Below the pieces are notes generated by a model that saw only the letters and a list, made by a program, of their open reading frames with translations, had not been told where the DNA came from and did no database searches. Shown one piece after another: positions 2,956 through 55,293 of a DNA stretch of 64,000 nucleotides (within the stretch, counting starts at the first letter, position 1; each line of letters begins with the position of its first letter). Where the stretch lies: positions 160,001-224,000 of the IMG/VR virus record IMGVR_UViG_3300045988_137032; one strand, given 5' to 3'. Source of the stretch: a virus. A program made the position numbers and the translations under genes.

Positions 2956-2973
2956 TATAATATATCATTATAT
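2956..2973 (+). promoter_or_regulatory. AT motif copy 1 (TATAATATATCATTATAT)
   Basis: Lies in the divergent spacer between 2065-2886(-) and terL(+). The right half gives TATATT. Confidence 0.6.
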
Positions 2974-3024
2974 TTTAGATTTATTGATGAAGACGTTACT
3001 TTAATCAATGGAGGTGATATAACA

Positions 3025-5217
3025 TTGGGTAATCGCATTAAGCGAATCGGAAATAAATACTATGACACTGGTACTTCGAATAAAAGTTTCCTCCAAGTAG
3101 CAAAAGACTTAAAAAGTCTTGGTATCCATAATTACTACTTTATGCTGGAAATTTATGATTATAGTCTGGTGAATATTGATCCTTATGCAGAGAATCTGAC
3201 AAGAGATCAAATCTCCAGAATTATGACAGAGTGTACCAGAAACCCATGGTATTATCTTCGAGAAATTTGTAGGATTCCTGACCAGGGCGGTGTTGGTATT
3301 CCATTTAAAGCAAATCGTGGTAATATCGCACAGACATGGTTAACCTTGCATGGTATCGATTCATGGCTATGCTTGCCTCGTCAGCAAGGTAAAACTATCT
3401 CATTCCTTTGCTTACTAGCATGGGCATATTCTTTCGGTACCAACAACTCTACCTTTATTTTCGTAAATAAGGATAGTGGAAATGCTAAGGAAAACTTACA
3501 ACGTCTGAAAGATATTATTGACTGCTTACCGGAATTCTTACGCTTTGACCAGATTATGGAAGAAGACGAAAATGGTAAGGTGAAATTGGTTAAGGCTGCA
3601 CGTAATGCTACTAGCATGAAGCATCCTATTACAAAAAACCGTATCATCATCAAACCAAAAGCAACTTCCTATGAGTCTGCATTGTCACTGGCTCGTGGTC
3701 TTACTTCTCCTATTCTACATTTTGACGAACCTGAGTTTACTCCGTATATCAAAACGATTATCGAGAACTCAGTATCAACCTTTGAAACTGCATCGAGGAA
3801 CGCTAAGAAAAATGGTGCTATGTATTGCCGGGCCTTCTCTTGTACCCCAGGTGACTTGGATACCTCCATGGGACAAGAAGCACAAGAAGTTCTATCGCAT
3901 ACTACGAAGTGGTCTGAGCACATGTATGATATGCGATACGATTCACTTAACGATGACAAGAATGAGCTTCTTCAGTACGTCAAAAATAACGGTGGAAACG
4001 GAATCGTATATATCGAATACTCTTATAAGCAACTTGGCCTCACGGACGAGTGGCTTCGGAATATGTACAATAAGATTCAAAACCCCGTCGTTGTAAAACG
4101 TGAGATTTTGCTTCAAAGAATTCGTGGTAGTAGTGATTCTCCGTTCGATCAGGAAGATATTGAATATATGGCATCTATGGTGAAACCTATCGTTGATGAG
4201 TTGTATCTGTGTGACCATTTCAGATTCGATATCTATAAGAAGCTTGAGAGACTTACTCCATACTTAGTAAGTATCGACTGCTCTACTGGTACCAACGGAG
4301 ACTCAAATGCTATTACAATTATCAACCCGTATACGGTAAGACCTGATGCTGAATTCAAGTGTCCGTATATTGGTGAGACACAATTCGAAAAACTCATCAT
4401 TGAGTTAGTCCAGGAGCATCTTCCTAGAGCATGTATCATCATAGAGAGAAACTCTGTTGGTGATGGCATTATCGATCATCTTCTGAATTCTCCTATTAGA
4501 TCAAATCTTTATTTTGATAAGAATAAAGACTTGGTTGAATCGAATCTTGCCGAGCAGTCGAATGTCGTCAGTATGCTGAAGCGTCAAGGAGATCAAAAGA
4601 AGTTCTATGGCGTTTATACCGACAATAAGAGTCGTGAAGATATGATGGCTATTCTGTTTAGACGAGTGGCTGAATTCAAAGACGACTTTGTTACTAAGAA
4701 TATCACCGATGATATTGCCCATCTTGTACGGTTTAAGTCAGGAAAGGTAGCTGCACAAATTGGTTTCCATGATGACTCCATTATGTCTTACCTCATCGGT
4801 ATGTATGTATGGTACCATGGTAACAACTTAAGTATGTGGGGCATCGTGAAGGGAGCTAAGGAGATTGAGAACCAAAATCAAGGTCTCCATAGATCCGTTG
4901 AAGATATTGAGAATATGGATATTCTTCCTGCTGATACAATAGAAGCTATGAAGAGGCAGGAGAAAGTCCGTAAGGAAAATGACTATGAGAAGATTATGAG
5001 AGAAGCTCTCATTAAAGCTCAGAGAGAATCCCTTGAACTCCATAGGAAGGGTCTTGTTGAAAATGAGACTCTTGATAAATCCCAGGATGTACAACTGGAA
5101 GAAATCTATGGTAATAATTCCATTGATATGAGTTTCTTCGATGAGATGAACGGTATGGGTTCTGATAATGGGTCTTCTTCTAATCTTTCAAATTTTGATT
5201 TCTTAAATGGCTTTTAA
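3025..5217 (+). CDS. terL: terminase large subunit
   Basis: TTG start after GGAGGTGA. Walker A-like PRQQGKT and Walker B ILHFDEPE. RNaseH-like nuclease motifs VSIDCSTGTNGDS, IIIERNSVGDG and GFHDDSIMS. Confidence 0.85.
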   Translation: MGNRIKRIGNKYYDTGTSNKSFLQVAKDLKSLGIHNYYFMLEIYDYSLVNIDPYAENLTRDQISRIMTECTRNPWYYLREICRIPDQGGVGIPFKANRGNIAQTWLTLHGIDSWLCLPRQQGKTISFLCLLAWAYSFGTNNSTFIFVNKDSGNAKENLQRLKDIIDCLPEFLRFDQIMEEDENGKVKLVKAARNATSMKHPITKNRIIIKPKATSYESALSLARGLTSPILHFDEPEFTPYIKTIIENSVSTFETASRNAKKNGAMYCRAFSCTPGDLDTSMGQEAQEVLSHTTKWSEHMYDMRYDSLNDDKNELLQYVKNNGGNGIVYIEYSYKQLGLTDEWLRNMYNKIQNPVVVKREILLQRIRGSSDSPFDQEDIEYMASMVKPIVDELYLCDHFRFDIYKKLERLTPYLVSIDCSTGTNGDSNAITIINPYTVRPDAEFKCPYIGETQFEKLIIELVQEHLPRACIIIERNSVGDGIIDHLLNSPIRSNLYFDKNKDLVESNLAEQSNVVSMLKRQGDQKKFYGVYTDNKSREDMMAILFRRVAEFKDDFVTKNITDDIAHLVRFKSGKVAAQIGFHDDSIMSYLIGMYVWYHGNNLSMWGIVKGAKEIENQNQGLHRSVEDIENMDILPADTIEAMKRQEKVRKENDYEKIMREALIKAQRESLELHRKGLVENETLDKSQDVQLEEIYGNNSIDMSFFDEMNGMGSDNGSSSNLSNFDFLNGF

Positions 5218-5220
5218 AGC

Positions 5221-5267
5221 ATAATAAGACTCCAAGTACTTACAGTTAGTACTTGGAGTCTTATTAT
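5221..5267 (+). terminator. terminator after terL
   Basis: 19-bp stem ATAATAAGACTCCAAGTAC / GTACTTGGAGTCTTATTAT. Confidence 0.7.
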
Positions 5268-5663
5268 AAACTGAGCATGGGAACCATAGCTCGATCAATA
5301 ATCGGAGCGCATGTGTGTTTGCATCATGAACAGAAAAACCATGACGAAAGAACGTAGTATGAAACCCTGAGAAAAGACCACAAATGAAAGCAAACCTGAT
5401 CACTGTATGTTCACAAAGGAGGTTGTGACTTCTGAAAACTCGAAAGGAATCTTTTATGGAGGTCGAAAATGGTGTTATTACGCTCAACGATAAAAAGCGA
5501 TGATCGTTGTTAAGCAGCAATATGGTATATCCATCATGCTCAATTTACACATCTGTTATACCTATATTTTAAATTAAACGGTTCTCTAGTAGTTTATTAC
5601 TATACAAAGCACATCCTATTAATATCCCTAAAGCAATAACGTAAAGAAAGGACTGTAGTAATT

Positions 5664-7466: not shown

Positions 7467-7482
7467 TTTAGCCTAAAAACAA

Positions 7483-7529
7483 AGGACTAATAGAAGACAG
7501 GTTCTCTTGTCTTCTATTAGTCCTATTTT
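7483..7529 (+). terminator. terminator
   Basis: 16-bp stem AGGACTAATAGAAGAC / GTCTTCTATTAGTCCT followed by ATTTT. Confidence 0.7.
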
Positions 7530-8387: not shown

Positions 8388-10331
8388 ATGCCCCAAGCCA
8401 CGCAAATTGTTCCTAAGTATCTGCATTCTCATGTAGAGACTTATATCAACGATTATACGCAGTTTGATGATTCCGCCAGTACGCCCGTAGATAACAACAA
8501 CAAGTTCATCTGCGTGTTCCGCTCTGGCAAAGGCCCTGACAATGTGCTTCTGAAGAAGGACGACCTGACTGACTTCATTGCCACTTATGGTAATTCCAAC
8601 TTCGCTAAGTACGGTCAGCCGCTTATGATGCCTATTGCTATGCTGACTTCTGGTAGCGCTACTGTTTACAGCATGCGCGTTATGCCTGATGATGCATTTG
8701 CTGCCAATAGCATTCTGCTGATGCAGTATCGTTTCGATGAGACTACCAAGAAGATGGTGATTCGCTATCGTACGAAGTATCTCGACAAGGCTGCACTGGC
8801 AACTATGGGTTCCGCTGGCTACAAGACTTCTAGCGCTTTCAAGAAGCAGCTTGAGCTTGCAGCACAGGCTGAAGTCAAGGAGTCCCTGACCGATGAGAAG
8901 GATGGTAAGGACTGGAAGCAGATTCCTATTGCCGTCTTCCGTATGTCTGGTCGTGGCGTCTATGGCAACAACTATCGTTGGCGCATCACCCGTAACTTCG
9001 AGTACGAGAACGACTACGGTATCATGATGTATACTTTCGAGTGCATCAATGCCGCTGGTTCTGGTGCCGAGGCTTCCTACGTTGGCTCTATCGTTTCTTC
9101 CAGCCAGTATCGTAACATCACTCTGATCAACGATATCCTGGATAACGAGGAGAAGGGTGCAGTCATGATGGACGTCGATATCCTCGAGGACTATGTCAAC
9201 GAGGCATACGATGAGTTCAAGGTCTTCCTGGAGACTCTGGATGACGTTCCTGAGACTCTGATCCCCACCAACGACACTTGGGATCCGTTCTTCGGTTTCC
9301 AGTGCAATAGCACCAGCCTTCATCCCAACATGGAAGTTATTGGTGAGTCTACTGATACCGAGGATATCGGTCTGAGCCGTGCTCAGGGTATTGCCCTGAT
9401 GGGTGGCGATGATGGTGCCTTCGGCAGTGATAACCCGACCGATGTCTTCAATGCTACCAACAAGTGCTATGTCGATGCATTCTCTGGTGAGTATGACTCT
9501 GTGATTCTGTCCAGCCGTCGTTCTCCCTGTGATGCTATCCTGGATGCTAACTATAACGCCGATGCTGAGCATGCTCAGTATGACGTTAAGGGCACCCTGT
9601 ATAACATGGCTCTGGCTCGTAACGATGCTCTGGTGTATCTGGATGCCGGCACTGAAACCAATAAGGCTTCTATCGACAACATGATCACCGAGTATGCTCG
9701 TTTCAATAGCCGTAATGCTGTCAAGGAGTTCCAGCACTATACTGTGAAGGATCCTGGTACTATGAAGAAGTGCGAGGTTACCGTCACTTACTTCTATGCT
9801 CAGAAGCTTCCCATCCACTATCAGAACTACGGTTCTTGGGTGCCGTTCGTCAAGGCTCGTTGCGAGCTGAGCGGCCATATCAAGAATACTCTGGAGCCTG
9901 CTGTGGATGATCTGGAGATGGAGCTGAAGGAGAAGCTGTACGTTAACCGTTTCAACTACTTCGAGACCATCGACGAGAACGTCTATCAGCGTGCTGCTCA
10001 GAACACTGCCCAGATGATCAATTCTGATCTGATGGAAGAGAACAACATGAACACCCTGTTTGCGCTGAAGAAGCAGCTTGAGCGTGACTGCTGGAACAGC
10101 CTGTACGACTTCACCTCTGTTGAGGATCGTGCTCGCTTCTCCGAGTCCGAGCAGGCTAAGTTCGCAAGCTGGATTGGCTCTCGTGTTGATACCCTGAGCA
10201 TCGTCTTTGACGCTAACGAGTGGGAGATGGAGCGTTCCATCGTCCATTGCTACGTCTCTGTCCAGTTCCGTAACATGATGAAGCGTGTTATCATCGAGAT
10301 CGATGTTAACAAGCGGAACTTCGAAGGCTAA
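8388..10331 (+). CDS. tail sheath protein
   Basis: ATG 8388 lies 8 nt after AAAGGAG. The N-terminal region (GKGPDNVLL..DFIATYGNS..GSATVYSMRV) follows the pattern of sheath N-termini. The C-terminal region (YVNRFNYFE..AAQNT, then FDANEWE..HCYVSVQF..IIEIDV) follows the pattern of sheath C-termini. A tube-like gene lies directly downstream. Codon usage is very biased. Confidence 0.65.
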   Translation: MPQATQIVPKYLHSHVETYINDYTQFDDSASTPVDNNNKFICVFRSGKGPDNVLLKKDDLTDFIATYGNSNFAKYGQPLMMPIAMLTSGSATVYSMRVMPDDAFAANSILLMQYRFDETTKKMVIRYRTKYLDKAALATMGSAGYKTSSAFKKQLELAAQAEVKESLTDEKDGKDWKQIPIAVFRMSGRGVYGNNYRWRITRNFEYENDYGIMMYTFECINAAGSGAEASYVGSIVSSSQYRNITLINDILDNEEKGAVMMDVDILEDYVNEAYDEFKVFLETLDDVPETLIPTNDTWDPFFGFQCNSTSLHPNMEVIGESTDTEDIGLSRAQGIALMGGDDGAFGSDNPTDVFNATNKCYVDAFSGEYDSVILSSRRSPCDAILDANYNADAEHAQYDVKGTLYNMALARNDALVYLDAGTETNKASIDNMITEYARFNSRNAVKEFQHYTVKDPGTMKKCEVTVTYFYAQKLPIHYQNYGSWVPFVKARCELSGHIKNTLEPAVDDLEMELKEKLYVNRFNYFETIDENVYQRAAQNTAQMINSDLMEENNMNTLFALKKQLERDCWNSLYDFTSVEDRARFSESEQAKFASWIGSRVDTLSIVFDANEWEMERSIVHCYVSVQFRNMMKRVIIEIDVNKRNFEG

Positions 10332-11358: not shown

Positions 11359-13764
11359 TTACTGACCGCCACCCATATCATCCATACCGGACATATCGAG
11401 GTTTTCATCATCAGACTGATCGTTCTTCATGGGATCCATGGAATCTCCCTTGCCTTTGATATTTGCAGCTTTAAAGATCTCTTCGATATGATCGAAGTTA
11501 AGCATTGCAAGTCTATCCTTAGCAAGTTCTTTCTTAAACACGGAAACCTGTGCTGTCTTACCAGCATCATCCTGATAGTTCTGTCCATAGTAAAGACCAG
11601 TCAGGAACTCAGAAAGTGTATTGAAGTTATTCAAAAGATCATTGGTAATATTGCTATTTGCAGTCTTAGGCTGAACGAAATTAAAATGAAGTGTATTGAT
11701 GACTTCATCCGGCATATTCGTAGCATATTTACAAATCTGCCGATAAAGCTGAGTAATTTGCTCATTGTAATCAAGCTGGAACGAAATGACACGACCCTGG
11801 AATCTATTATTTGCAAGCTCCAGTGTCTTAGCAAAGTCAGCTTCATTATAGTAGTTGAGCAAGACATCAGGAACACCAGTACCAGAGACATATGCTTTCT
11901 TCAGCATATCCATCAGATCACTATTGATCTGGACATCCTGACCAGCAAGAATCTCAGTTTCAATACCACGTTCATTTCCCTTACCAGTAGGAATATACAT
12001 CTCGTTGCCCTGACCAATCTTATTGATCAAGGTCGTGTACGAGAACATATCCGCCATGGTAATCTTACGCTCTTGCTTCTTACGAGCAATATCCTGAATC
12101 TTATTGGCGACGTTCTTATCAATACCAGACTGTCTGACGTAGTTGACCTTAGTATCATTACTATTGGTAACGATAGAAAGAATCTTAAAGAGCAACAGCA
12201 TCAGATAAAGTTTAGCATAGAAAAGCGAATCTTCAATGATGGAAACACCATTGCCATGCTCATCTGTATTGATCTTAAACGGCACAATATATTCTTTCGG
12301 AATAAACTGGAAACGAATCCGTTTATTATTCAGCTTATAGTAATTCAATGCTTCCACAATAAGCTTCTTAAACTTCATATTCTCGTTTAAGAACTTCTTA
12401 TTGAATGCTTCTACGATAGAGGATGCAATCATGGAAACGATATTCGTTTCACTGGTATTCATGTCATACTTATCGTAATACATGGTAGAAGTAAGAATAC
12501 CTGCCATAGGAGTGATATCATCTTCCTGTACGTAATAGTACCCGATGATTTCATCCATAATCTTAATAGGGAGAAGATTCAGAGGTGAGATCAATCTTAC
12601 ATAGCAATCCTGAATACTATTGAAAGATTCTGCTTTACCAGTCTTCTTCTTATCAAGAGCTCCCGTACCATTAAATGCATGAACACCAGAATCGATATTC
12701 CGCATAATGGAATTGAAATTATAAGAAGGAGTTTTCTTAGCTTCCGTAACAGACTTCTCTACAAACTCGTTATAGTACTGGCGGTAAGTATCAACACCTT
12801 CTTCCAATACAGGAAGAGGAATAGCATCATTGCAGATAGTGATATTCTCCATGCATGCTTTCAATTCAGAATTCAACTGCTTGGAAGCTTCATTTTTACT
12901 ACTAGATCCATTCCTACGAATGATATCATCGTATTCAGGACAAGATTCTGCTGCTTCCATAATATCTTTCGCAAACTTTGTTTTGCTAAAATCTTTCGTG
13001 TCAGCTTTCTCTGTAATGATTCTATCCAGTGTACGTCCAGCAGCTTCACTATATGCTCTATACTTGCCATCTGCTTTCTCCTTAGAGAAATCAGAGAAAA
13101 TCTTAGAGTAAGGAACTGCATAGACGTAATATTCACCATATTCCAGAGAACGAGGAATAATGAATTCCTTAATCTTCTTCTGAAGATCAAACTTCTTTTC
13201 CACATTCTCAATGATAGGCAGATAATCTTCAGAGCCATTCTCCATATTATCATTATCAATGGTAATCGTACGAGACATGGTACCATCCACAATATCTGCC
13301 GAAATAATAGCATCACGAGTAACAACGATAGCTTGCTTTAATTCAACAAGCTGTGATGCAACTTCATGAAGGTCAGCTTGCTTTATCAGGCGGTTCTTAT
13401 ACTGCTCTGTAAATAAAGCTTGAATCTGACCTTCATCTGTGCCAAAGATATCCTCAAGATCTTTTGATGCACCAGCGATTCGCTTATTATTCTCCGAAAT
13501 AACTTTCGTGATAAAGTCAACGCTGTCTCCACCAGATCCCTTTCGGATATCTGTAATTTCAGATTTAAGTAATGAATTAAAATTATTGACGAGTGAATCA
13601 ACTTTCGTATCTCTCTTAGTACCATATGTCATCGTATTCAGCGAGTCCATCATCTGATTGATATTAGCACTGATATTTCGATTCATACGGTTGATACGGC
13701 CTGCTTGCTGTTTTGTCAGCTGAGGCGCAGAAGCCTCATTAATGTGATCAGGCATGAAATACAT
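11359..13764 (-). CDS. portal protein
   Basis: 801-aa ORF with GGAGAGGAG RBS. Size and a C-terminal region (ADFAKTLELANNRFQGRVISFQ) are reminiscent of the T4 gp20-type portal. Lies in the structural neighbourhood. Confidence 0.6.
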   Translation of the reverse strand: MYFMPDHINEASAPQLTKQQAGRINRMNRNISANINQMMDSLNTMTYGTKRDTKVDSLVNNFNSLLKSEITDIRKGSGGDSVDFITKVISENNKRIAGASKDLEDIFGTDEGQIQALFTEQYKNRLIKQADLHEVASQLVELKQAIVVTRDAIISADIVDGTMSRTITIDNDNMENGSEDYLPIIENVEKKFDLQKKIKEFIIPRSLEYGEYYVYAVPYSKIFSDFSKEKADGKYRAYSEAAGRTLDRIITEKADTKDFSKTKFAKDIMEAAESCPEYDDIIRRNGSSSKNEASKQLNSELKACMENITICNDAIPLPVLEEGVDTYRQYYNEFVEKSVTEAKKTPSYNFNSIMRNIDSGVHAFNGTGALDKKKTGKAESFNSIQDCYVRLISPLNLLPIKIMDEIIGYYYVQEDDITPMAGILTSTMYYDKYDMNTSETNIVSMIASSIVEAFNKKFLNENMKFKKLIVEALNYYKLNNKRIRFQFIPKEYIVPFKINTDEHGNGVSIIEDSLFYAKLYLMLLLFKILSIVTNSNDTKVNYVRQSGIDKNVANKIQDIARKKQERKITMADMFSYTTLINKIGQGNEMYIPTGKGNERGIETEILAGQDVQINSDLMDMLKKAYVSGTGVPDVLLNYYNEADFAKTLELANNRFQGRVISFQLDYNEQITQLYRQICKYATNMPDEVINTLHFNFVQPKTANSNITNDLLNNFNTLSEFLTGLYYGQNYQDDAGKTAQVSVFKKELAKDRLAMLNFDHIEEIFKAANIKGKGDSMDPMKNDQSDDENLDMSGMDDMGGGQ

Positions 13765-13889
13765 ACACTCCTCTCCATTGTAGTATATTTTGATATGAAA
13801 CGCTCATAGTTATTGTATTTCCGTAGATTACCTAAGTGTTTTTAGGATCATTTCCTGTGAAATACAATGATTAATCATTTCAAATCATA

Positions 13890-13907
13890 ATATAATGATA
13901 TATTATA
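13890..13907 (-). promoter_or_regulatory. AT motif copy 2 (reverse orientation)
   Basis: The plus strand reads ATATAATGATATATTATA. Lies in the divergent spacer between portal(-) and 13986-14591(+). Confidence 0.6.
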
Positions 13908-13985
13908 TCAGTGAATATGAAGTAAGCAATCGGTTTACTTATATTCATTTTGGCCTAGTGTATGCTAGGAGAAAGCGAAAATCAT

Positions 13986-14591
13986 ATGAAGTACGAAATC
14001 AGCAAGAGCTATCTGTGCCGCAGTGACCGGTATGATGATTTTTATATCATCAAGGCAACCAGCGACAACGGAGTCTCCAAGTATTACGAAGGATACTCTC
14101 AGTTGTATAAGGAGTTGCTTTCCAGAACGTCTGATATGAAGTGCTCTTCCTTGAACGGTGATACCATCGAAAAGAGTCCTATCTACCAGACGGTCAGTGC
14201 TGACGATTACAAGCGCCAAATTCTCACTCAGTTCATCCATGGCGTCAAGATGGAGAAAACTTTCTCTGTCGCCATCACCAATGATCTCATTGGATATACA
14301 AGATTTTCTCCGGAATCGTTCGATGAGTTCATGAAGATTCTTTCCACCGGAAAGAGCTATCTGGACGTCAAGAGCGCAGACTTGTTCAGCAAATCCGCTG
14401 ACGGAGATGAGCTCATCGGTATCAAGTACTATGATGCGTGCAAGGATGTCCCGAATGACGAGCAGTATAAGAACACCTTCAACCGTATCCATCGCTTCAT
14501 GAGTGAGGACGGCATCTGCTATTACCTTCTCATGAAGGTTAACAGCATCTACGTGCCGTTCCTTCTGCGTGAGTTCGATCCTATGGCATAA
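13986..14591 (+). CDS. hypothetical protein
   Basis: ORF downstream of the minus-oriented AT motif. Start is ATG 13986 (or 13962). Terminator at 14643-14690. Confidence 0.5.
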   Translation: MKYEISKSYLCRSDRYDDFYIIKATSDNGVSKYYEGYSQLYKELLSRTSDMKCSSLNGDTIEKSPIYQTVSADDYKRQILTQFIHGVKMEKTFSVAITNDLIGYTRFSPESFDEFMKILSTGKSYLDVKSADLFSKSADGDELIGIKYYDACKDVPNDEQYKNTFNRIHRFMSEDGICYYLLMKVNSIYVPFLLREFDPMA

Positions 14592-14699: not shown

Positions 14700-15365
14700 T
14701 CAGCTATCCTTCTTCACCATTGGAATATAGAAGTTGAACGACTGAGATGTAAATAAACCTATATCGCATCTGAATGATATTAGGTTGAGTTCATTAGAAT
14801 ATTGTCGGGCGCTATACTCGACAATATCTGTATTTTTTTCTGTGACAAGAGGGAAAGCTTCCTTAGTCAGAATCACAGGAACATCATCAACATCTTCAGG
14901 TACAAACTGGAAGTAGTTATTTTCTACGAAGATGTCATTGATTTGTGCTTCTGTCAAATTAAGCTTATGCCAATCATGAAGAATACCATTCAAATCGTAA
15001 TAATACTGAGTACGAGCAATTACATTACTCCTCTCAGAATTAAGACGGACTTGAACTGCTTTTTTTCGATATTCTTCCAAGTCAATATTCTTTTCAAGAT
15101 CTGCTTTGGAAGGACATACGTATTTCTTAAACTCACGAGCATTCGGAATATGGATCATTGATCCAAAATCATCGAATAGATAAAATAACGCTTTCGTTGT
15201 TTTATCATCGAGCTTTATCATGTACGGATAATTTATATCAAGACTGATGACATCACCAGTTTTCATGATGTAAATATCATTCATTACTCTTACGAGTTTT
15301 GTAAATACTTTCCCGATGAGAGTTCTCTCATCATTATCCGGGAGAATTACTTTAGTCGTTGCCAT
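14700..15365 (-). CDS. hypothetical protein
   Basis: 221-aa ORF whose ATG overlaps the PolB stop by 1 nt (TAATG). Contains no polymerase motifs. Confidence 0.6.
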   Translation of the reverse strand: MATTKVILPDNDERTLIGKVFTKLVRVMNDIYIMKTGDVISLDINYPYMIKLDDKTTKALFYLFDDFGSMIHIPNAREFKKYVCPSKADLEKNIDLEEYRKKAVQVRLNSERSNVIARTQYYYDLNGILHDWHKLNLTEAQINDIFVENNYFQFVPEDVDDVPVILTKEAFPLVTEKNTDIVEYSARQYSNELNLISFRCDIGLFTSQSFNFYIPMVKKDS

Positions 15366-17194: not shown

Positions 17195-17317
17195 ACTACT
17201 CAGTCTCCTTTATGATTATACTTTTGATTAGACTACTGTCATCCTGACCATTAAAAGTGATAGTGAAAACAGAGACTTAAGTTTCTAGGCTTTACATATA
17301 TTACTCTAAGGAGAAAG

Positions 17318-26447: not shown

Positions 26448-26465
26448 TATAATATATCATTATAT
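26448..26465 (+). promoter_or_regulatory. AT motif copy 3
   Basis: Divergent spacer between 26005-26382(-) and 26539-27816(+). Confidence 0.6.
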
Positions 26466-26538
26466 TTTTAAGCTGAATTATCGTGAAAGACATTAGCTTA
26501 AATCAAGTGTATCTTTATGAAATGGAGGTAATAAAATC

Positions 26539-36810: not shown

Positions 36811-36821
36811 AATTACGGCAG

Positions 36822-39885: not shown

Positions 39886-39889
39886 TAAT

Positions 39890-40303: not shown

Positions 40304-40348
40304 AAAAAAAGAAGGAAGGCTGATATATTTAAATCAGCCTTCCTTCTT
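40304..40348. terminator. bidirectional terminator
   Basis: A7 run, stem AAGAAGGAAGGCTGAT / ATCAGCCTTCCTTCTT. Confidence 0.75.
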
Positions 40349-40407
40349 ATAGTTAATTAGTAGACATTGGGCTCAACTGCTTCCTGCATATCGTTGACTT
40401 TATCCGA

Positions 40408-42958: not shown

Positions 42959-44725
42959 TTAGGAATTTGAGTCAGTAGATTCGGAATCTTTTGCTTCCTT
43001 ATTCTCATTGTCATTTCCCTGAGTCATATCCTCAGTATTCTCGACAACGATCTCATACTTCTCACGAGAAGTACCATTGACTGTGAACGAACCACGGTTA
43101 AACTCAGAGAGCTTATTCAGCAACGCATAGTATTCTTCCTTCGTATCGCAATTGATCTTGATGTATTCATAATGCTCTTCAGCCATGACATGCTCAAGAT
43201 CTTTTGCATATTCGAATCGGAATGCATCGGTCTCATTGGATTCATCAAAATAGAATCCTTTGATCTTACCGAACGGAGTCAGGACACCAGAAGTACCAGG
43301 GTCAGAGTTACCGCAAACAAGTAAGTCGATATTACCGAGGAAGCTCGGATGAGAACCACGATAACGAATCGAGATGTTGTTGGAATTCTTTCCACCCATA
43401 GAGTGGGGTCCCTTGATTGTATACTTGAACTTGCTGAAGAAGTCCATGTCGTTCATGTTATCGTTAAACCGGAGAATACCAGAAGAATGCATCTTCTGAA
43501 TCAGAATCTCACCAGTGAAACGGAACATGTTCGTGAAGTTATCCATGGTTGCTTTATTGCCAAGGGTAATCACAGAGTTAAGTCTGGAGGAGAAGTCCAA
43601 AGTCAGAAGAGATGCGATGTATTCATTACAACGCAGTCTCTTATTATCCAGACTCATATTATCCTTCAAACGAAGAGTACCAAAGTTCTGCATCATCCAA
43701 CGAAGGACTGCATAGATATCATTCTTCTCGTAATCATCCAGTTTCAGAATCTTACGAGTGGTAACATCTATCAGTCGATTGAAGAAGACCAGAATGTCTT
43801 CCCCCTTCTCAACCGTGTTGTTATTGGAAAGGGACTTGATCCAAACCGTCTTGTCATGGAAATCCTTAATCGTGGTACGAGAATTACTGACGGTAAGAAG
43901 ACCGCCAATAATAGACTGGATATAAGGATACTTCATGAACAACTCACGGTTGACTTCAACGAAGCAATGACTGGAAATTTGGAAATAGATATTCCGAGTT
44001 TCATCAGCATCAGAAAGATCCTTCTTCAGAGAAACGATATTATCTACTTCCAGATAGCTCATTGCCCATTCCCAACCATTTGCCAGATAGAACAGCATGA
44101 TGGGAATTTCTTTACGGAACACAAAGACATTATAGACGGGGATATTGTACTCAACACCAGCAATATCCTTGCCACCAGTCTCACTGCGTACCATCTCATC
44201 AGCCTTGATACCATTTCGCTTCACGCAGATAGGCATCAAAGACTTCAGAGTAACTGCATTATTCGAAGTATAGGTAGACTTATCAACCAGCTGATAGATC
44301 ATGTAATACTTCTTGCCACGGATATAGAAGAAGCCATCATCATCCTGAATCGGAATCAGCATCTGCTTGATGATTCGCTTCCTATGGATTTTCGGTTCAT
44401 CCGGATTCTTTGTATCCGTTTCTTTCACAGTAACCTCAATGGTAACTGTGAGACAACCACAACGGTCGTCATTGATGAACTTATAATCGAATCGATCCTT
44501 CTTACGCTTCTTCTTTTCACGCTTGAAGATGTGGTTATTGATATCGATCGTGGCTTCGTTATCATTCCACTTAAATCCGATGATTTGAATATTCTTAACG
44601 ATTTCGAGGCTACGCCAGACATCCTTGATGTACTCAACGAGAGGAAGATCAGCTTCCTTATTCATCAGAGGCACATTCAATTCTTTCTCAAATTCTGACG
44701 TATACTCACCGATATACTTGAGCAT
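42959..44725 (-). CDS. multisubunit RNA polymerase beta-subunit N-terminal fragment
   Basis: ATG 44725 follows AAGGAGGACGAAAGT. DDDGFFYIRGKKYYMIYQLV corresponds to bacterial beta FIINGtERViVsQL. IRYRGSHPSFLGNIDLLVCGNSDPGTSGVLTPF corresponds to RDvHpSHYGRiCPiETPEGpNiGLi. Confidence 0.7.
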   Translation of the reverse strand: MLKYIGEYTSEFEKELNVPLMNKEADLPLVEYIKDVWRSLEIVKNIQIIGFKWNDNEATIDINNHIFKREKKKRKKDRFDYKFINDDRCGCLTVTIEVTVKETDTKNPDEPKIHRKRIIKQMLIPIQDDDGFFYIRGKKYYMIYQLVDKSTYTSNNAVTLKSLMPICVKRNGIKADEMVRSETGGKDIAGVEYNIPVYNVFVFRKEIPIMLFYLANGWEWAMSYLEVDNIVSLKKDLSDADETRNIYFQISSHCFVEVNRELFMKYPYIQSIIGGLLTVSNSRTTIKDFHDKTVWIKSLSNNNTVEKGEDILVFFNRLIDVTTRKILKLDDYEKNDIYAVLRWMMQNFGTLRLKDNMSLDNKRLRCNEYIASLLTLDFSSRLNSVITLGNKATMDNFTNMFRFTGEILIQKMHSSGILRFNDNMNDMDFFSKFKYTIKGPHSMGGKNSNNISIRYRGSHPSFLGNIDLLVCGNSDPGTSGVLTPFGKIKGFYFDESNETDAFRFEYAKDLEHVMAEEHYEYIKINCDTKEEYYALLNKLSEFNRGSFTVNGTSREKYEIVVENTEDMTQGNDNENKEAKDSESTDSNS

Positions 44726-44824: not shown

Positions 44825-45538
44825 TTAACCCTCGTTGGAACCAGTTGCCAGCTTATCGTTCTTGAACTTCAGCTTCAGACTGATGCTGGGGAGATAATAA
44901 ATCTCCTCATCACCATCCTCAGTGAGCTCAGCACCAACCGTATAAAGGCCAGCGACATTCAGAGAATAGTCGCTGCTGTTGCCATCACGACGCTTCAGAC
45001 GAACATGCTCCAGAATTGCATTGTGGACAATGCAGAACAGCGGAATGATGAACTCATGAGACTCCAGCTTGATATTGATCATTTCACCAAGCTTCGCCTT
45101 CGCCTTGCCAGAGATCTCTTTGATCACTTCATGGCTCTCAGTAATATTCTTGGAGTTCCACTGAGTTGCCAGATTGATGGTGGACTGATCACTGTCGTCA
45201 TCATCGATGGAGCTATCGCTCTGAGTGGACTTGCAATGCTTCATGTACACCATGAAGTTACCGACCTTCTCATCATCCTCGCTGTTGGTGGTATTGTAAC
45301 CGATAATCAGACGATTTGCGAGATTCAGTTCATAAGAATCCCACTTATCCTCACGCTCTGCAACCACATCCGTGATTGCATCAAAGATTGTACCATAGAT
45401 GGCCATCACAACCTTCGGGTTGTTGATGCCCAGACGGAGAGACCGCTTAATCTGATCGATTGCTTCGGAACCGATATCCTCGATCTCCTTAACATCATCG
45501 ACCACATTGTTTACAAACCATTCTTCACACTTAGTCAT
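44825..45538 (-). CDS. hypothetical protein (abundant-type codon usage)
   Basis: AAAGGAGAC RBS. 237 aa. G/C-ending codons. Confidence 0.65.
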   Translation of the reverse strand: MTKCEEWFVNNVVDDVKEIEDIGSEAIDQIKRSLRLGINNPKVVMAIYGTIFDAITDVVAEREDKWDSYELNLANRLIIGYNTTNSEDDEKVGNFMVYMKHCKSTQSDSSIDDDDSDQSTINLATQWNSKNITESHEVIKEISGKAKAKLGEMINIKLESHEFIIPLFCIVHNAILEHVRLKRRDGNSSDYSLNVAGLYTVGAELTEDGDEEIYYLPSISLKLKFKNDKLATGSNEG

Positions 45539-45656: not shown

Positions 45657-45669
45657 ATTATCACCTATA

Positions 45670-45679
45670 TATAATATAT
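45670..45679 (+). promoter_or_regulatory. core-only copy (TATAATATAT)
   Basis: Upstream of 44825-45538(-), separated from it by the long hairpin 45593-45656. Confidence 0.4.
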
Positions 45680-46529: not shown

Positions 46530-48659
46530 TTATACCAGAGAAAGCTCGGCTTCCATAACCATCTTTGCTTTCTCAATCGGAACGATTCTTACACCATACT
46601 TTCTGGCTTTCTCAACCTTACTAGATTGAGTATCCGGAGAAGGTACAACCAAAAACGTAGTCCCACGAGTAACTATGTCAACAACCTTGCCACCATGATC
46701 CGTAACCCATTTATCAAGGTCAGGATCACGAATCATCGTAAAGCATACAGTAAACTTCGGATCTTCGAGTTTTCCCTTAGTAGGAATAATCGTGAGTTCC
46801 TTTTCCAGCTTCCTAAGAAGCTTCTCATTATTCCGAACGCCTTCGATAATCTTCATGGCAGTTTTCTCACGAATTGTAGGGATTCCAACCAGAGTATGAT
46901 ACAGCTTATTTTCTGCTGTATAATACAACTGCTCCAAATCCATATACGGCATGATTCTCTCAAATGTCTTATGAGAGACTCCTTCAATACCAATTGCTCC
47001 AAGCAGAATATAATCCGGAACTTCTTTCTTTGCATCAATTGCATCAATCCAAGATTCCAGCATCTTCTTACCGAAGCCATCGATATTGATGATTTCCTTC
47101 TTGTGCTTTTCCAGCTTATAGAGATCATGGATATCCTTTACAATCCCTTCATGATAAAGCTTTGTGATAACTCCATAAGAGATACCATCAATCTTCATCT
47201 TAGAAAGATAATTGAGAATCTTACCAATCTTCCTACAAGGACAATCCGGATTCACACAAGATGCAATATCGCCAGATTCACTGAAGACAAGATCACTTCC
47301 ACATTCAGGACAAGTTGTAGGAACTTCAAACTCTTTTCCGTCATAATTATGCTCACAATCACTATCGAAAGCCATATACGGAATGATGTCATAAAGAACC
47401 TTAACCTTATCTCCCTTGTGAAGATGAAGTGCCTTAAATCTACCAATGGAACCGAGAGAAATATTCTCAATGGTATTTCCCTTCAGCTTCACAGGTTTCA
47501 CCTGCGCAACTGGAGCCAATCTACCAAAGAGACCCATATTGAAAGTGACATCCTTCAAGACAGACATCTCTGATTCTTCCGTAAACTTATATGCAACTTC
47601 GAAGTTATTCTTATCATTCTCTCTACCGAGAATCTTTTGCAATTCCGGATTGATGATATAAATAACTGCTCCATCACAACGAAGTTCACCATGAACGTAC
47701 CGATGCCCTAAAGCAAACTTACGAATCGCTTCTCTATCTTTCAGTTTACACCGAAGGAACGGGAAGTTCTTGAATGCTTCTTTGGCAAGTTGCTGATCAC
47801 CAGCTTCATTGCCAACTCTCAAAGGAATTGCATGGAGATATCTGGACTTCTCAGGATCAAACTCATCACTATTCAGAATACCAGAAACGATTGACCGAGT
47901 ATTCTTATAATCAGTATGATACCTCTCATTGAATGCAACGAGATCACTCTCATACATCATAACCTCGGTCTTAAGTCCATAAGCCCCATTGAACTCATGA
48001 TACTCACGAATCGGGAATCCTTGAAAATGACGAGTGATATCTTGAGCTTCATTCCGTTCTGTAAATCCACGAGTAAGAACTCGATCGATTGTACCATCGG
48101 CATTCATCTCAAAGATACCTGAGACGCCATCAAACTTCGGGAAGACATAAATGTCTTCATCATTCAGACTTACTTTCTTACCAGAAGTTTGATAGATCTT
48201 ATTCTCCATGGTCTGAATCCATTCATCGAGATATCGTCTGGATGGATTCGTTCTCTCCTCTTCCAATGACAGATAATGTGTCTTCGTCAAAGTACCTCTC
48301 AAAGAAGGATACTTATGATGAGCGATATTCACGGCATCTGGAGCAATTGGAACGGAAATGATATCAGATCCTCCATTATCCAGCATGATTGCATACAGCG
48401 TATCATACTCAGAATCCGTAAGACCTGTATCCAACCCAGAATCATTATAGATGAACTGGGTCACATTGATAAGCCCCTGAATATTCTGAAGATCATCTGC
48501 GAAATACGGAATCAAAGAATTTACTTGCTTCTTATGAATATAAGCATTCACAAGTTTCCGTACCTCAGAACTCTTCATAATTTCAGAAGCTTCCTGACAT
48601 GACATATCTCCATCTACCAAAGATTGATATATGTCGTTGAAATTTACAGTGGTTGCCAT
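46530..48659 (-). CDS. ligA: NAD-dependent DNA ligase (LigA type)
   Basis: GAAAGGAG RBS. Adenylation motif FPKFDGVSG (KxDG). Cys4 zinc finger CPECGS..CVNPDCPC. C-terminal BRCT-like FTVCFTMIRDPDLDKWVTDHGGKVV..TTFLVVP. Length 709 aa. Confidence 0.9.
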   Translation of the reverse strand: MATTVNFNDIYQSLVDGDMSCQEASEIMKSSEVRKLVNAYIHKKQVNSLIPYFADDLQNIQGLINVTQFIYNDSGLDTGLTDSEYDTLYAIMLDNGGSDIISVPIAPDAVNIAHHKYPSLRGTLTKTHYLSLEEERTNPSRRYLDEWIQTMENKIYQTSGKKVSLNDEDIYVFPKFDGVSGIFEMNADGTIDRVLTRGFTERNEAQDITRHFQGFPIREYHEFNGAYGLKTEVMMYESDLVAFNERYHTDYKNTRSIVSGILNSDEFDPEKSRYLHAIPLRVGNEAGDQQLAKEAFKNFPFLRCKLKDREAIRKFALGHRYVHGELRCDGAVIYIINPELQKILGRENDKNNFEVAYKFTEESEMSVLKDVTFNMGLFGRLAPVAQVKPVKLKGNTIENISLGSIGRFKALHLHKGDKVKVLYDIIPYMAFDSDCEHNYDGKEFEVPTTCPECGSDLVFSESGDIASCVNPDCPCRKIGKILNYLSKMKIDGISYGVITKLYHEGIVKDIHDLYKLEKHKKEIINIDGFGKKMLESWIDAIDAKKEVPDYILLGAIGIEGVSHKTFERIMPYMDLEQLYYTAENKLYHTLVGIPTIREKTAMKIIEGVRNNEKLLRKLEKELTIIPTKGKLEDPKFTVCFTMIRDPDLDKWVTDHGGKVVDIVTRGTTFLVVPSPDTQSSKVEKARKYGVRIVPIEKAKMVMEAELSLV

Positions 48660-48689
48660 TTGTGCTCACTCCTTTCATTATACTATTTA

Positions 48690-48699
48690 TATAATATAT
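48690..48699 (+). promoter_or_regulatory. core-only copy (TATAATATAT)
   Basis: 31 nt upstream of the ligase start (48659, minus strand), just after terminator 48706-48746. Confidence 0.45.
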
Positions 48700-48705: not shown

Positions 48706-48746
48706 AAGTACCAGCCTATTATTTATTATATAATAGGCTGGTACTT
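48706..48746 (-). terminator. terminator
   Basis: 16-bp stem AAGTACCAGCCTATTA / TAATAGGCTGGTACTT. Confidence 0.7.
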
Positions 48747-48749
48747 ATG

Positions 48750-49154
48750 TCAATGCAATACACCTTCCTGAATCAGGATTTCGTTGATTTTTTCTTTCAC
48801 GGTTTCCGGATTAAATACAAGGAACGGTTTCTCACATGTAAGATCCATTGTGGAATACATCTTATTGAGTTCGAGTAATGCTGCCCAAAGCTCCACTGTA
48901 CCGTAGAGGTCATAGCTGAGCTTCTTTGGCTTAAACTTATACATACGAACTTCATCGGCAGGAAGAGATACAGTGATCGCATCCTCTGCCATAAGATCCA
49001 TATACTCACGAATCATTGACTTATACGGAACTTGAATGACTTCATTATTCTGTCGAATGCAGAATGTAGTATGTAAGTTCCGATAGCTAATTTCTTTTGT
49101 CTCGATCTGATCAATAAGTTCTTGAATGGTCGAGTAATACATCTTTTCTGGCAT
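48750..49154 (-). CDS. hypothetical protein
   Basis: 134-aa ORF with GAGAGG RBS inside the upstream gene's end. Terminator at 48706-48746. Confidence 0.6.
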   Translation of the reverse strand: MPEKMYYSTIQELIDQIETKEISYRNLHTTFCIRQNNEVIQVPYKSMIREYMDLMAEDAITVSLPADEVRMYKFKPKKLSYDLYGTVELWAALLELNKMYSTMDLTCEKPFLVFNPETVKEKINEILIQEGVLH

Positions 49155-49160
49155 ATATTA

Positions 49161-49559
49161 TCACCAGCCTCTCTTGTTGGAAAGCTGCTCGACATTCGTG
49201 ACAAGGTATTCTGCATCGCCAGTATCATTCAGTCCATCTCGAGCACCTTTAATAGATGTCAAGTCTGAAATAACTTTCGGAAGATCACCACCGGAATCAA
49301 TATCAAATCCAGTAAGTGCCATAATAATGCCCTTGGCTTTAAGAAGAACCTGAGCAAGCTTCAACTGATTATCTTCGAGGTCATACATACGCTGCATGGG
49401 AGAGTTGCCAACAGGAGAGCCTTCTGGCTTTTTGAAACGAATTAGTTTCACATTACTACCATCGTAATAGTGTGCAACGAGCCATGCAACTCCATTGTCA
49501 TCGGGAGGAATGAGATAGCACTCTCCAGTGGGCTTCTCACCCTGAGTCATCATATACAT
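49161..49559 (-). CDS. hypothetical protein
   Basis: 132-aa ORF with AGAGAGGA RBS. Confidence 0.6.
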   Translation of the reverse strand: MYMMTQGEKPTGECYLIPPDDNGVAWLVAHYYDGSNVKLIRFKKPEGSPVGNSPMQRMYDLEDNQLKLAQVLLKAKGIIMALTGFDIDSGGDLPKVISDLTSIKGARDGLNDTGDAEYLVTNVEQLSNKRGW

Positions 49560-49940: not shown

Positions 49941-50047
49941 AACGAATTTCCCTCCTTAATTAAAGTGCTTAAATTTCTGTTTTCATACTCAATATTCACG
50001 AAAACAGATCTCATAAGCAAAACCTTAAATCCAAGGAGGTTATCGAT

Positions 50048-51253: not shown

Positions 51254-51362
51254 ACACATCAGGAGACATTATCTATGACATATAGTCTGGATAATGCCTC
51301 CTGTTTATCAATATACCATCTAACAGCTTTCTAACCGAAAGTATAAAAAGGAGTGTCGACCT

Positions 51363-52705: not shown

Positions 52706-53050
52706 TTACATGACGTATTTGGTGAAGTTGTCACCGAATTCATTAGCAAGCACACGATGTTGTGTTGAACATGCGGATATTTTTCGCATATCCGGATAAC
52801 CGGCGCTAACAAAGTATTCTGCAAGTTCATCATCATTCATTTCGTTTGGATTGACGGAGCCAACCCGTAGGCCGGCTGTCTTAGCAAACGGAACGAACAT
52901 GGAAGGAAAATACCGAGGGCTGGTTAAGGGCGACTCGGTATTTTCTTCCACTATGTTGACCTGATTCTCATTCAGGTTCAAAAAGGATACCTGCTTTGTC
53001 AAGTTATTGACATTGCAGGTATCCATTTGCTGAATAGAAGCAGTTTGCAT
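52706..53050 (-). CDS. hypothetical protein
   Basis: GGAAGGAGGA RBS. The AT motif lies 32 nt upstream. Confidence 0.55.
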   Translation of the reverse strand: MQTASIQQMDTCNVNNLTKQVSFLNLNENQVNIVEENTESPLTSPRYFPSMFVPFAKTAGLRVGSVNPNEMNDDELAEYFVSAGYPDMRKISACSTQHRVLANEFGDNFTKYVM

Positions 53051-53081
53051 ATGTAATCCTCCTTCCCTATTATGATACTAA

Positions 53082-53098
53082 TATAATATATCATTATA
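53082..53098 (+). promoter_or_regulatory. AT motif copy 5 (TATAATATATCATTATA then GG)
   Basis: The only copy between two same-strand (minus) genes. Lies 32 nt upstream of 52706-53050(-). The right half is degenerate (TATAGG). Confidence 0.55.
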
Positions 53099-54070: not shown

Positions 54071-54113
54071 AAAAAAGAAGGGATACCTAACTGGATGTTA
54101 GGTCCCTTCTTTT
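54071..54113. terminator. bidirectional terminator
   Basis: A run, stem AAGAAGGGA(T)ACCTAAC / GTTAGGTCCCTTCTT, T run. Confidence 0.7.
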
Positions 54114-54115
54114 AT

Positions 54116-54424
54116 TTATGCTTCGTAAGAATTATCGGTGTCATCAGCAGGCTCATCGATCGGCTCGTAACGATCACGATCGAACTTGGCCTTGATCACG
54201 GCCTTGTGGATGAGGCGCTTGAACTGATCAATCTTCATGCTGACCCACTGGATAGCAGAGAAAGCCAACAGGGCAAGGCTGACAATGATCATGATATCAG
54301 AGATGATATCCATGATCATGCAGAAAGTCGGGTGCTTATCACGCATAAGCTTCCGAGCAGCCTTGCGCTTAGCTTCTGCTTCATTGCACATTACAACGTA
54401 CTCATTCCAATTCATAGCCTTCAT
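54116..54424 (-). CDS. small single-pass membrane protein
   Basis: ATG 54424 (MKAMNWNEY) follows AGAAAGGAAAT in the duplicated leader. TM segment IMIIVSLALLAFSAIQWV. Confidence 0.55.
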   Translation of the reverse strand: MKAMNWNEYVVMCNEAEAKRKAARKLMRDKHPTFCMIMDIISDIMIIVSLALLAFSAIQWVSMKIDQFKRLIHKAVIKAKFDRDRYEPIDEPADDTDNSYEA

Positions 54425-54483
54425 AATAATTTCCTTTCTGCGTATCTTTAATGTGCTCGCCAGCACTCATGTTTTTTATTTCG
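54425..54483 (-). repeat. duplicated 5' leader, copy 1
   Basis: 42 nt (54431-54472) are identical to 54791-54832. On the minus strand it reads ACATGAGTGCTGGCGAGCACATTAAAGATACGCAGAAAGGAA. Contains the hairpin GTGCT-GGCG-AGCAC. Confidence 0.85.
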
Positions 54484-54502: not shown

Positions 54503-54784
54503 TTACCGCACTTCGTGCATGGTTGCCACTTCATTGAAGTGGCAATTGTACTTAACCCAATCACGGCTCACGAAGTACAAGTTTCCGGATCCGCTTGCGG
54601 CTTCGTCCGTATGATACAACTTAGTATTTTCGGGGCGACGGTGATCAAAATCACTCTTGATCACCTGTAGCATATTGAACGCATCCTTCTCCGAAATACC
54701 TTCAGCGATCATGGTACTATTGATAGTGATAGTACCATGATCGGTATCCATGTAGTTATTGATGATGACATTAAATTTTTTCAT
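54503..54784 (-). CDS. small hypothetical protein
   Basis: ATG 54784 (MKKFNVII) follows AGAAAGGAATC in the duplicated leader. Confidence 0.55.
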   Translation of the reverse strand: MKKFNVIINNYMDTDHGTITINSTMIAEGISEKDAFNMLQVIKSDFDHRRPENTKLYHTDEAASGSGNLYFVSRDWVKYNCHFNEVATMHEVR

Positions 54785-54846
54785 AATTGATTCCTTTCTG
54801 CGTATCTTTAATGTGCTCGCCAGCACTCATGTGTGTTTTTATTTCG
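54785..54846 (-). repeat. duplicated 5' leader, copy 2
   Basis: Same 42-nt block plus a shared AAATAAAAA flank, with a CAC indel relative to copy 1. Confidence 0.85.
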
Positions 54847-54855
54847 TATTGGAGA

Positions 54856-55185
54856 TTACTTAAAGATCAGGGTTGCGTTAGGATCGTTCATCATCTTATC
54901 GAATGCATCGCGATCCATTCCGATGTCGGATGCCACGTACTTGTGGTCATCAGACTTCTTGTTGTTGAAGATGCGATTGTATGCATCCTCACCGGCCTTT
55001 GCATCTGCGAAAGCCTTCTTCTGTGCAGGGGTCTGAGCATACTTTGCAGCATGCTCGAGGTTGCCAGTAAGAGCGTACTGAACGTACGGGTCAGTGCTGT
55101 TGATGGGATTGTACTTTGCGTTCAATTCGCTGGAGCTCATGGTCTTGACAGTAGTGGTAGCGGACTTTTTGAAGAAGTTAAACAT
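54856..55185 (-). CDS. hypothetical protein (abundant-type codon usage)
   Basis: AGAAAGGAT RBS. 109 aa. Confidence 0.6.
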   Translation of the reverse strand: MFNFFKKSATTTVKTMSSSELNAKYNPINSTDPYVQYALTGNLEHAAKYAQTPAQKKAFADAKAGEDAYNRIFNNKKSDDHKYVASDIGMDRDAFDKMMNDPNATLIFK

Positions 55186-55276
55186 AGTGGAATCCTTTCT
55201 TGATCTCTACGGATCATACAAAATTGATTTTATTTTTTGAAGGTTATATTTCTATTCCCTTCTTATTATTCGCATT

Positions 55277-55293
55277 TATAATATATCATTATA
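55277..55293 (+). promoter_or_regulatory. AT motif copy 6
   Basis: Divergent spacer between 54856-55185(-) and the protease gene(+). The right half gives TATAAT. Confidence 0.6.

Follow-up and report, generated by a model that had tools for sequence, protein, structure and literature searches.

For every jumbo phage that encodes its own RNA polymerases, a short, highly conserved AT-rich element has been described near -10 upstream of the early operons (PMC7598289). For the Bacillus phage AR9, 41 early start sites were mapped by differential RNA-seq and primer extension, which yielded the consensus AAATATATATTAT-(6N)-G(+1), and the early transcription, being unaffected by chloramphenicol, was attributed to an injected virion polymerase (PMC5312081). 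The phiKZ early element is TATATTAC, and the related elements of OBP, N1M2 and 201phi2-1 end in GTG (PMC7058600). In the Staphylococcus phage MarsHill, motif discovery found TATATTAT upstream of 29 genes (bioRxiv 10.1101/2020.12.14.422802). Here, we analysed a stretch of 64,000 nucleotides of viral DNA (positions 160,001 to 224,000 of the IMG/VR record IMGVR_UViG_3300045988_137032; hereafter the window), in which a 17-mer, TATAATATATCATTATA, or its 10-nt core, TATAATATAT, recurs at nine sites (Table 1). These nine sites very probably act as early promoters, in one direction only, in an uncultivated jumbo phage that is a distant relative of AR9/PBS1. Promoters of this kind are already known, and the window sites carry a clade-specific upstream half.

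PHROG and Pfam searches identified genes for a large terminase (3025-5217), a tail sheath protein (8388-10331), a family-B DNA polymerase (15365-17194, minus strand), an SbcC-like ATPase, an NAD-dependent ligase (46530-48659, minus strand), gyrase A and B, and an endolysin. Two adjacent plus-strand genes, 33541-34269 and 34271-35491, match PHROG 'RNA polymerase beta subunit' families and are orthologs of the AR9 virion subunits g078 and g264. The minus-strand gene 42959-44725 (phrog_2943) matched AR9 g105, the beta-N subunit of the non-virion polymerase, in tblastn (30% identity, E 5e-56). Thus, subunit orthologs of both the virion polymerase (g078, g264 and g125) and the non-virion polymerase (g105) are encoded in the window. 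A local tblastn of all the called window proteins against AR9 gave 22 orthologs with 21-47% identity. The AR9 gene order is kept for the terminase (g121), the virion proteins g125 and g127, the sheath (g126), the portal (g128) and the DNA polymerase (g132), and the g078, g264 and g105 orthologs are located elsewhere in AR9 relative to this syntenic run. Megablast of two window segments against GenBank phages gave no nucleotide match. At the protein level, the closest cultured phages were Bacillus AR9 and PBS1 (37% identity for the polymerase subunit), followed in the polymerase-subunit search by Staphylococcus jumbo phages, Listeria phage LPJP1 and Yersinia phage phiR1-37. As the AR9 orthologs include subunits of both polymerases, the predicted genes place the window in an uncultivated jumbo phage of the AR9 type, a distant relative with two multisubunit RNA polymerases.

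We observed six exact copies of the 17-mer, at 2956, 26448, 33400, 53082 and 55277 on the plus strand and at 13891-13907 on the minus strand, whereas dinucleotide shuffles of the window predict 0.06 copies and none of 100 shuffles reached six. The 10-nt core is present in nine copies, those outside the full 17-mers being at 33063, 45670 and 48690; the expectation from dinucleotide-preserving shuffles was 0.47, and again none of the 100 reached the observed count. All nine core copies are intergenic according to a simple gene caller that assigns 11.4% of the window to intergenic sequence (P ~3e-9). The spacers of the 33063 and 33400 sites are also intergenic in public gene calls on identical contigs. 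The predicted start lies 25-126 nt from a gene start on the same strand, and all nine sites are oriented in that way. An earlier note on this DNA, made by reading the letters, had listed the same copies (except that it placed the minus-strand one at 13890), had seen none inside a gene and had described the complement of the core as aimed at a gene start in every case. Our gene calls bear out this placement and agree with the gene starts listed there. Its expectation of about one chance copy of the core was higher than that from the shuffles, and the excess that it claimed stands. A scan of the whole window against Rfam (gathering thresholds) and a tRNA scan gave no matches, and the motif thus does not belong to any known RNA.

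When aligned toward their target genes, on the strand complementary to that written in the earlier note, the nine sites read (TATAATG or T-rich)-ATATATTATA-N4-T-(G/A)-A, and all of them contain ATATATTAT. The base 7 nt past ATATATTAT is G at six sites and A at three. By analogy with AR9, ATATATTAT would cover about -15 to -7, and this purine 7 nt after the core is the predicted start. The four bases before the core are AATG in the full copies, and GATT, GCTT and ATTT in the three core-only copies. The outer six bases on the two sides of the 17-mer form a perfect inverted repeat with a 5-nt spacer. The earlier note had also reported a TTCAnn element upstream of every full copy but the one at 53082. 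It is found at 2956, 13891 and 33400, is offset by 3 nt at 26448 and reads TTCGCA at 55277, and it is actually the reverse complement of T(-1) G(+1) A A, the initiation region, which is located downstream of the motif. On the other hand, the proposal of the same note of a phage-specific promoter is supported, as is its aim at minus-strand genes (a plus-strand gene at 13891), and the connection that it drew to phiKZ/AR9 virion-polymerase promoters agrees with the published AR9 consensus (PMC5312081) and phiKZ element (PMC7058600).

We compared the sites with the AR9 promoters using a 22-position scoring matrix built from the 31 promoters with a canonical core among the 34 'early promoter' features of the AR9 GenBank record; the TATATTAT core is invariant in these 31 of 34. 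Both strands of the window were scored (~128,000 positions). Eight of the nine sites were the top eight positions of the window, each in its predicted orientation, with scores of 9.4-18.7, while their opposite orientations scored no higher than 6.9. The agreement extends to gene order. Early promoters are annotated in AR9 upstream of g120, divergent from terminase gene g121, and upstream of g263, divergent from virion-polymerase gene g264, and the 2956 and 33400 sites sit at the equivalent positions; the AR9 g263 promoter is AAATATATATTATATTAATGA and the 33400 site is AATGATATATTATATTCATGA. By their sequences the sites are clearly of the AR9 type, yet a variant of it that differs in the four bases upstream of the core.

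The features shared with AR9/PBS1 are the ATATATTAT core, a start purine at the equal 6-nt spacing, the T before and the A after the start, the density (about 1 per 7 kb in the window versus 41 in 251 kb in AR9), the positions ahead of operons with small unknown genes and in spacers shared with divergent terminase and virion-polymerase genes, and the partner late motif AACA-N6-TA. The two differ upstream of the core, where the window has AATG (in TATAATG) or T-rich sequence and AR9 has AAAT, although the AATG of the full copies shares the two near-invariant A positions of AR9. The window also has an additional conserved A after the core and accepts A at +1 in a third of its sites. Its G+C content is ~40% compared to ~28% in AR9, and protein identity is only 24-37%. 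The DNA of AR9 contains uracil; the same base in the present phage would bear on the reading of the AACA late motif.

Several observations weigh against the assignment as early promoters. The ninth site (core 45671) scored only 4.8 with the AR9 matrix, and the window sites as a whole (4.8-18.7) scored below AR9's own promoters (20.3-29.6). In first-order Markov random sequences modelled on the window, the mean maximum score was 11.4 and the highest 16.4, and only three window sites exceed every one of these sequences. The upstream part is unlike the AAAT of AR9, the three core-only sites are without its near-invariant AA, the predicted start is A rather than G at three sites, and the AR9 polymerase has been reported as intolerant of single changes (PMC5312081). 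We found no convincing motif variant upstream of the DNA polymerase, gyrase A or gyrase B genes, whose AR9 orthologs have early promoters, nor upstream of the SbcC gene. When Lavysh et al. 2017 (PMC5312081) was published, a virion polymerase from this phage group had yet to be purified, so that proof of direct promoter recognition is lacking for AR9 as well. The start sites, the timing and the responsible polymerase are accordingly those that analogy with AR9 would predict. What was established here directly is the motif with its placement and orientation, the match to AR9, the synteny, and the conservation in relatives described below.

Relatives were reached through the protein search and through a scan of IMG/VR for the 17-mer. 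Apart from isolated hits scattered over unrelated AT-rich contigs, the scan gave several contigs, 145-262 kb long, which carry multiple 17-mers and share 70-89% identity with the window. In the orthologous spacers of these relatives, the motif forms an unchanged island while the surrounding sequence has diverged. Five relatives share 18 identical nt at the 26448 site, although the flanks and even the downstream genes differ, and the 55277 site is kept in four relatives. At the 53082 site, two relatives have the core-only form where the window has the full form in the same co-directional spacer, which indicates that the two forms interchange. Among the 48 unique sites of the window and its relatives, position +1 is a purine in all 48 and position -1 is T in 41. 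As both positions lie outside the search pattern, retrieval bias does not affect these counts. For the upstream half, on the other hand, conservation is inflated, because the relatives were retrieved by the 17-mer itself. The relatives also bear on a probable degenerate tenth site, missing from the earlier note, with core 20795-20803, located 30 nt upstream of the gene 20840-21358(+). Its ortholog in one relative (L073) is a perfect ATATATTAT, and it is probably a degenerate promoter of putative activity. An additional exact ATATATTAT at 49153-49161 (+) overlaps the end of gene 49161-49559(-), has a C at the start distance, is followed by 880 nt without a same-strand gene, and is in no promoter-like context. 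The earlier note does not list it either. It is most likely a chance occurrence.

By analogy with AR9, the element would be read by the virion RNA polymerase, a split beta/beta' enzyme that would be packaged in the particle and injected with the DNA, so that neither host polymerase nor new protein synthesis would be needed. The early promoters would then drive small genes of unknown function together with the genes for the non-virion polymerase beta-N subunit and the DNA ligase. Subsequently, the non-virion polymerase may transcribe the structural genes from separate AACA-N6-TA promoters, which would share the divergent spacers with the early promoters. The units headed by the motif hold the g105 ortholog, the ligase (g095 ortholog), an NTP pyrophosphohydrolase-like gene and many small genes without a family match. 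In AR9, g105 is an early gene, g095 is continuously expressed, and 76% of the early gene products are without predicted function (PMC5312081). A general lack of family matches is typical of early genes, and the gene classes downstream of the motif fit early promoters.

The predicted late partner was also found. The AR9 late-promoter motif, AACA-(6N)-TA/G, has 46 matches in the window, of which 18 are intergenic, a 5-fold higher density. With an AAAACA prefix, eight of the ten matches are intergenic (27-fold higher density). Genes for structural proteins, lysis and the virion polymerase have such motifs at a distance of 27-76 nt upstream. The AR9 g263/g264 spacer likewise has AACA-N6-TA, and the equivalent AR9 spacers share the two-promoter layout. 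One of the window motifs is in the 22-nt loop of a perfect 18-bp inverted repeat at 33449-33506 (AATAGACTAGGCTGCTTA ... TAAGCAGCCTAGTCTATT), and this hairpin is nearly identical in relatives that are only ~75% identical overall. The arrangement is curious because the AR9 non-virion polymerase is able to use single-stranded templates (PMC7598289). It is not general, as only four of 15 late-type sites reach the 1-in-100 shuffle level for lying in a hairpin loop.

We considered an addition to the promoter model, in which the full 17-mer, through its TATAATG half, would also serve as a palindromic operator bound by a dimeric protein of the phage or virion, for example one controlling the timing or the shut-off of early transcription. 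The perfect 6-bp inverted repeat with its 5-nt spacer would suit such a protein, and the upstream half is exact in six window sites, frequent in relatives, and unlike the AAAT of AR9 at the same positions. However, alternating AT-only sequence is near-palindromic by nature, and the conservation of this half in relatives suffers from the retrieval bias mentioned above. Moreover, the AA of TATAATG aligns with the near-invariant AA of AR9, so the upstream half may be nothing more than promoter sequence; the core-only form is conserved too and swaps with the full form; and no candidate regulator was identified. We therefore regard an operator function as unlikely. It is also quite improbable that TATAATG is either the site of a dimeric regulator or an element that lets the virion polymerase engage either way at divergent spacers, the sole hint being a link of full copies to divergent spacers (P = 0.008, from biased and non-independent sites).

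We judge very unlikely the model of the earlier note, in which one quasi-palindromic element (TATAAT-N5-ATTATA) fires both ways and drives, in addition, the terminase, portal, 26539, virion-polymerase operon and protease genes. Besides the inverted repeat of the outer six bases, it has in its favour that divergent spacers hold five of the six full copies but none of the three core-only copies in the window (Fisher P = 0.048), and that, in the window and relatives together, nine of ten core-only copies are co-directional, compared to 11 co-directional and 18 divergent full copies (Fisher P = 0.008; the sites are non-independent and the sampling is biased). In addition, 'continuously expressed' genes of AR9 carry both an early and a late promoter (PMC5312081). 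Reading the sites in reverse, however, we observed a mismatched core (ATATATCAT), bases at the start distance (T, A, T, C, A and T) that include no conserved purine, and AR9-matrix scores of at most 6.9. Four of the five divergent genes are preceded by an (A/G)ACA-N6-TA motif of their own, the terminase alone being without a clean match, and the AR9 orthologs of the divergent genes (terminase, portal, virion-polymerase subunits and prohead protease) are late genes. In primer extension on the equivalent AR9 spacers, the early side was active at 5 min, and activity of the opposite side was seen only by 20 min (PMC5312081). The claim of the earlier note that the promoter is partly bidirectional is thus not supported, in view of the mismatched reverse core, the missing start purine and the separate late-type motifs.

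The same note had pointed out that the far half is degenerate only in the non-divergent copy. Among the full copies of relatives, 11 are in co-directional spacers and some of these have a far half that is a perfect TATAAT, which removes this single-case correlation, and the orthologous 53082 site switches between full and core-only forms within one co-directional spacer. A tie of the palindrome to divergent spacers was rejected, being marginal in the window and weakened by these co-directional full copies and by the swapping of forms. A simpler reading of the association between core-only sites and co-directional spacers is that, in such spacers, the upstream half borders on or runs into the T-tract of the terminator before it, an example being the 48690 site.

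It is likewise very unlikely that the sites are host sigma-A promoters (extended -10: TGnTATATT or TATAAT) from which bacterial RNA polymerase reads the early genes: TATAAT and TG-A-TATATT do occur within the element, one passable -35 partner exists (TTCACG-17-TATAAT, 26487..26459) and the ribosome-binding sites look Gram-positive, but a -35-like partner was present at only one of seven scanned motif sites, sigma-70-like sites numbered 23 and 24 against shuffled expectations of 25.3 and 34.2 (two regions, 19 kb total), the 17-18 contiguous conserved bases with a fixed start position go far beyond the needs of a -10 hexamer, the element matches the promoter of a phage group reported as host-polymerase-independent (PMC5312081, PMC7598289), and the phage encodes subunits of both its own polymerases. 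A host-type promoter was rejected on the lack of -35 elements and of enrichment of sigma-70-like sites in these regions. The likeness to sigma-70/sigma-A extended -10 promoters consists of TATAAT-like, AT-rich hexamers and of a TG located two bases before TATATT; the window sites differ in having no common -35, no enrichment and a far longer exact element. The earlier description of TATAAT-N5-ATTATA as two opposed -10-like hexamers treats the element as a host sigma-70 promoter and is not supported on the same grounds.

A separate observation concerns a perfect sigma-70 consensus, TTGACA-17-TATAAT (12/12), at 48725-48753 on the minus strand. The -35 hexamer falls within the final codons of gene 48750-48992, and the -10 hexamer within the loop of the terminator hairpin 48706-48746, ~25 nt upstream of the early promoter of the ligase gene. 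It could be a chance occurrence or a host-polymerase promoter.

Table 1. Predicted early promoters and late-type motifs of the window (sites are named by the first position of the motif)
Feature	Coordinates	Strand	Core	Base at predicted start	AR9-matrix score	Context
Predicted early promoter, full 17-mer (2956-2972); 2956 site	2950-2972	-	2957-2965	G 2950	14.0 (rank 4)	Upstream of 2065-2886(-); divergent from large terminase gene (3025+)
Predicted early promoter, full 17-mer; 13891 site	13891-13913	+	13898-13906	G 13913	16.7 (rank 2)	Upstream of 13962-14591(+); divergent from portal gene 11359-13764(-)
Predicted early promoter, full 17-mer; 26448 site	26442-26464	-	26449-26457	G 26442	16.6	Upstream of 26005-26382, 25513-25902, 25165-25500 (-); divergent gene 26539-27816(+)
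Predicted early promoter, full 17-mer; 33400 site	33394-33416	-	33401-33409	G 33394	18.7 (top)	Upstream of 58-aa gene 33151-33327(-); divergent from virion-polymerase operon (33541+)
Predicted early promoter, full 17-mer, co-directional spacer; 53082 site	53076-53098	-	53083-53091	A 53076	10.7	Upstream of 52706-53050(-)
Predicted early promoter, full 17-mer; 55277 site	55271-55293	-	55278-55286	G 55271	13.9	Upstream of 54856-55185(-) and probably the next three minus-strand genes to 53113; divergent from prohead protease/scaffold (55398+)
Predicted early promoter, core-only, T-rich upstream; 33063 site	33057-33072	-	33064-33072	A 33057	9.4 (rank 8)	Upstream of 32089-33009(-)
Predicted early promoter, core-only; 45670 site	45664-45679	-	45671-45679	G 45664	4.8 (lowest)	Upstream of 44825-45538(-) and the operon with the non-virion polymerase beta-N gene (42959-44725)
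Predicted early promoter, core-only; 48690 site	48684-48699	-	48691-48699	A 48684	9.6	Directly after terminator hairpin; upstream of NAD-dependent DNA ligase gene 46530-48659(-)
Probable degenerate tenth site ATATATTCT, one mismatch (A-to-C)	20795-20810	+	20795-20803	A (at start distance)
Late-type AACA-N6-TA	13829-13840	-				65 nt upstream of portal gene; candidate separate promoter
Late-type AACAGAATGGTA	33479-33490	+				51 nt upstream of virion-polymerase operon; in hairpin loop (33449-33506)
Late-type AACACTAATTTA	55342-55353	+				45 nt upstream of protease/scaffold gene; block kept in relatives
Late-type variant GACA-N6-TA	26489-26500	+				Upstream of 26539-27816(+); block kept in all five relatives
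Late-type motif	7478-7489	+				Upstream of g125 ortholog
Late-type motif	22880-22891	-				Upstream of endolysin
Late-type motif	17268-17279	+				Other intergenic
Late-type motif	18426-18437	+				Other intergenic
Late-type motif	22912-22923	+				Other intergenic
Late-type motif	23583-23594	+				Other intergenic
Late-type motif	51322-51333	+				Other intergenic
Late-type motif	49970-49981	-				Other intergenic
Late-type motif	54088-54099	-				Other intergenic

The predicted early promoters of the window also resemble those of more distant phages. They share with the phiKZ-like phages a short AT-rich element near -10 with the start a few nt downstream, attributed there to a packaged multisubunit polymerase. 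They differ in the last base and in the flanks; the polymerase subunits of the two are ~25% identical, and the phiKZ-like late promoter is TATG. With the MarsHill group they share the TATATTAT core upstream of genes, predicted from sequence in both MarsHill and the window, whereas MarsHill retains the AR9-like AAAT upstream part. The MarsHill sequence shows TTAAATATATATTATA-N4-T-G, and one site of Listeria phage LPJP1 reads AATGATATATTATA, like the window. As the TATATTAT 8-mer is common by chance at 26% G+C, counts of it in LPJP1 and MarsHill are uninformative by themselves, and we took into account only those sites that show the wider context.

In the window, both AR9 promoter types (ATATATTAT-N6-R and AACA-N6-TA) persist at ~40% G+C and at only 24-37% protein identity to AR9, and the promoter specificity of both polymerases therefore seems to be much more stable than the proteins themselves. 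At orthologous positions, the full, core-only and A-to-C forms constitute a natural mutational series for the biochemically uncharacterised recognition of promoters by virion polymerases. The sites give a working transcription map for an uncultivated jumbo phage, with probable early operons, late operons and expected transcript starts, and the motif is usable for annotating early genes in this phage group.

We also noted some further features of the window. A plus-strand element at 17296-17304, ATATATTAC, has a phiKZ-type ending and a G 7 nt downstream. This G falls in the ribosome-binding site of the gene starting at 17318, which has the late-type AACA at 17268, and the element is probably not a working promoter. 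On the minus strand, an identical 41-nt leader, CATGAGTGCTGGCGAGCACATTAAAGATACGCAGAAAGGAA, with a small GTGCT/AGCAC hairpin is present at 54431-54471 and 54791-54831, preceding two consecutive small genes, 54116-54424 and 54503-54784. The leader has no Rfam match, and leader-like blocks of 43-63 nt with 84-95% identity occur in the IMG/VR loci L027, L058, L071 and L090.

Phages of the AR9 group are rich in introns and homing endonucleases. Although the genome is otherwise densely packed with genes, unusually long gene-free stretches of 230-520 nt are found in the window at 5218-5663, 36811-37266, 39886-40407 and 63202-63430, several of them with hairpins and none with Rfam or tRNA hits, and given this richness they are possibly remnants of such elements.

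Finally, the subunit protein encoded at 34271-35491 and its flanking genes are identical in 38 blocks of a public assembly collection from many sequencing runs; the loci L118-L121, for example, are identical contigs from the runs ERR13988913, ERR636414, SRR5786443 and ERR13613034. The phage is therefore widespread in sequenced samples though uncultivated.

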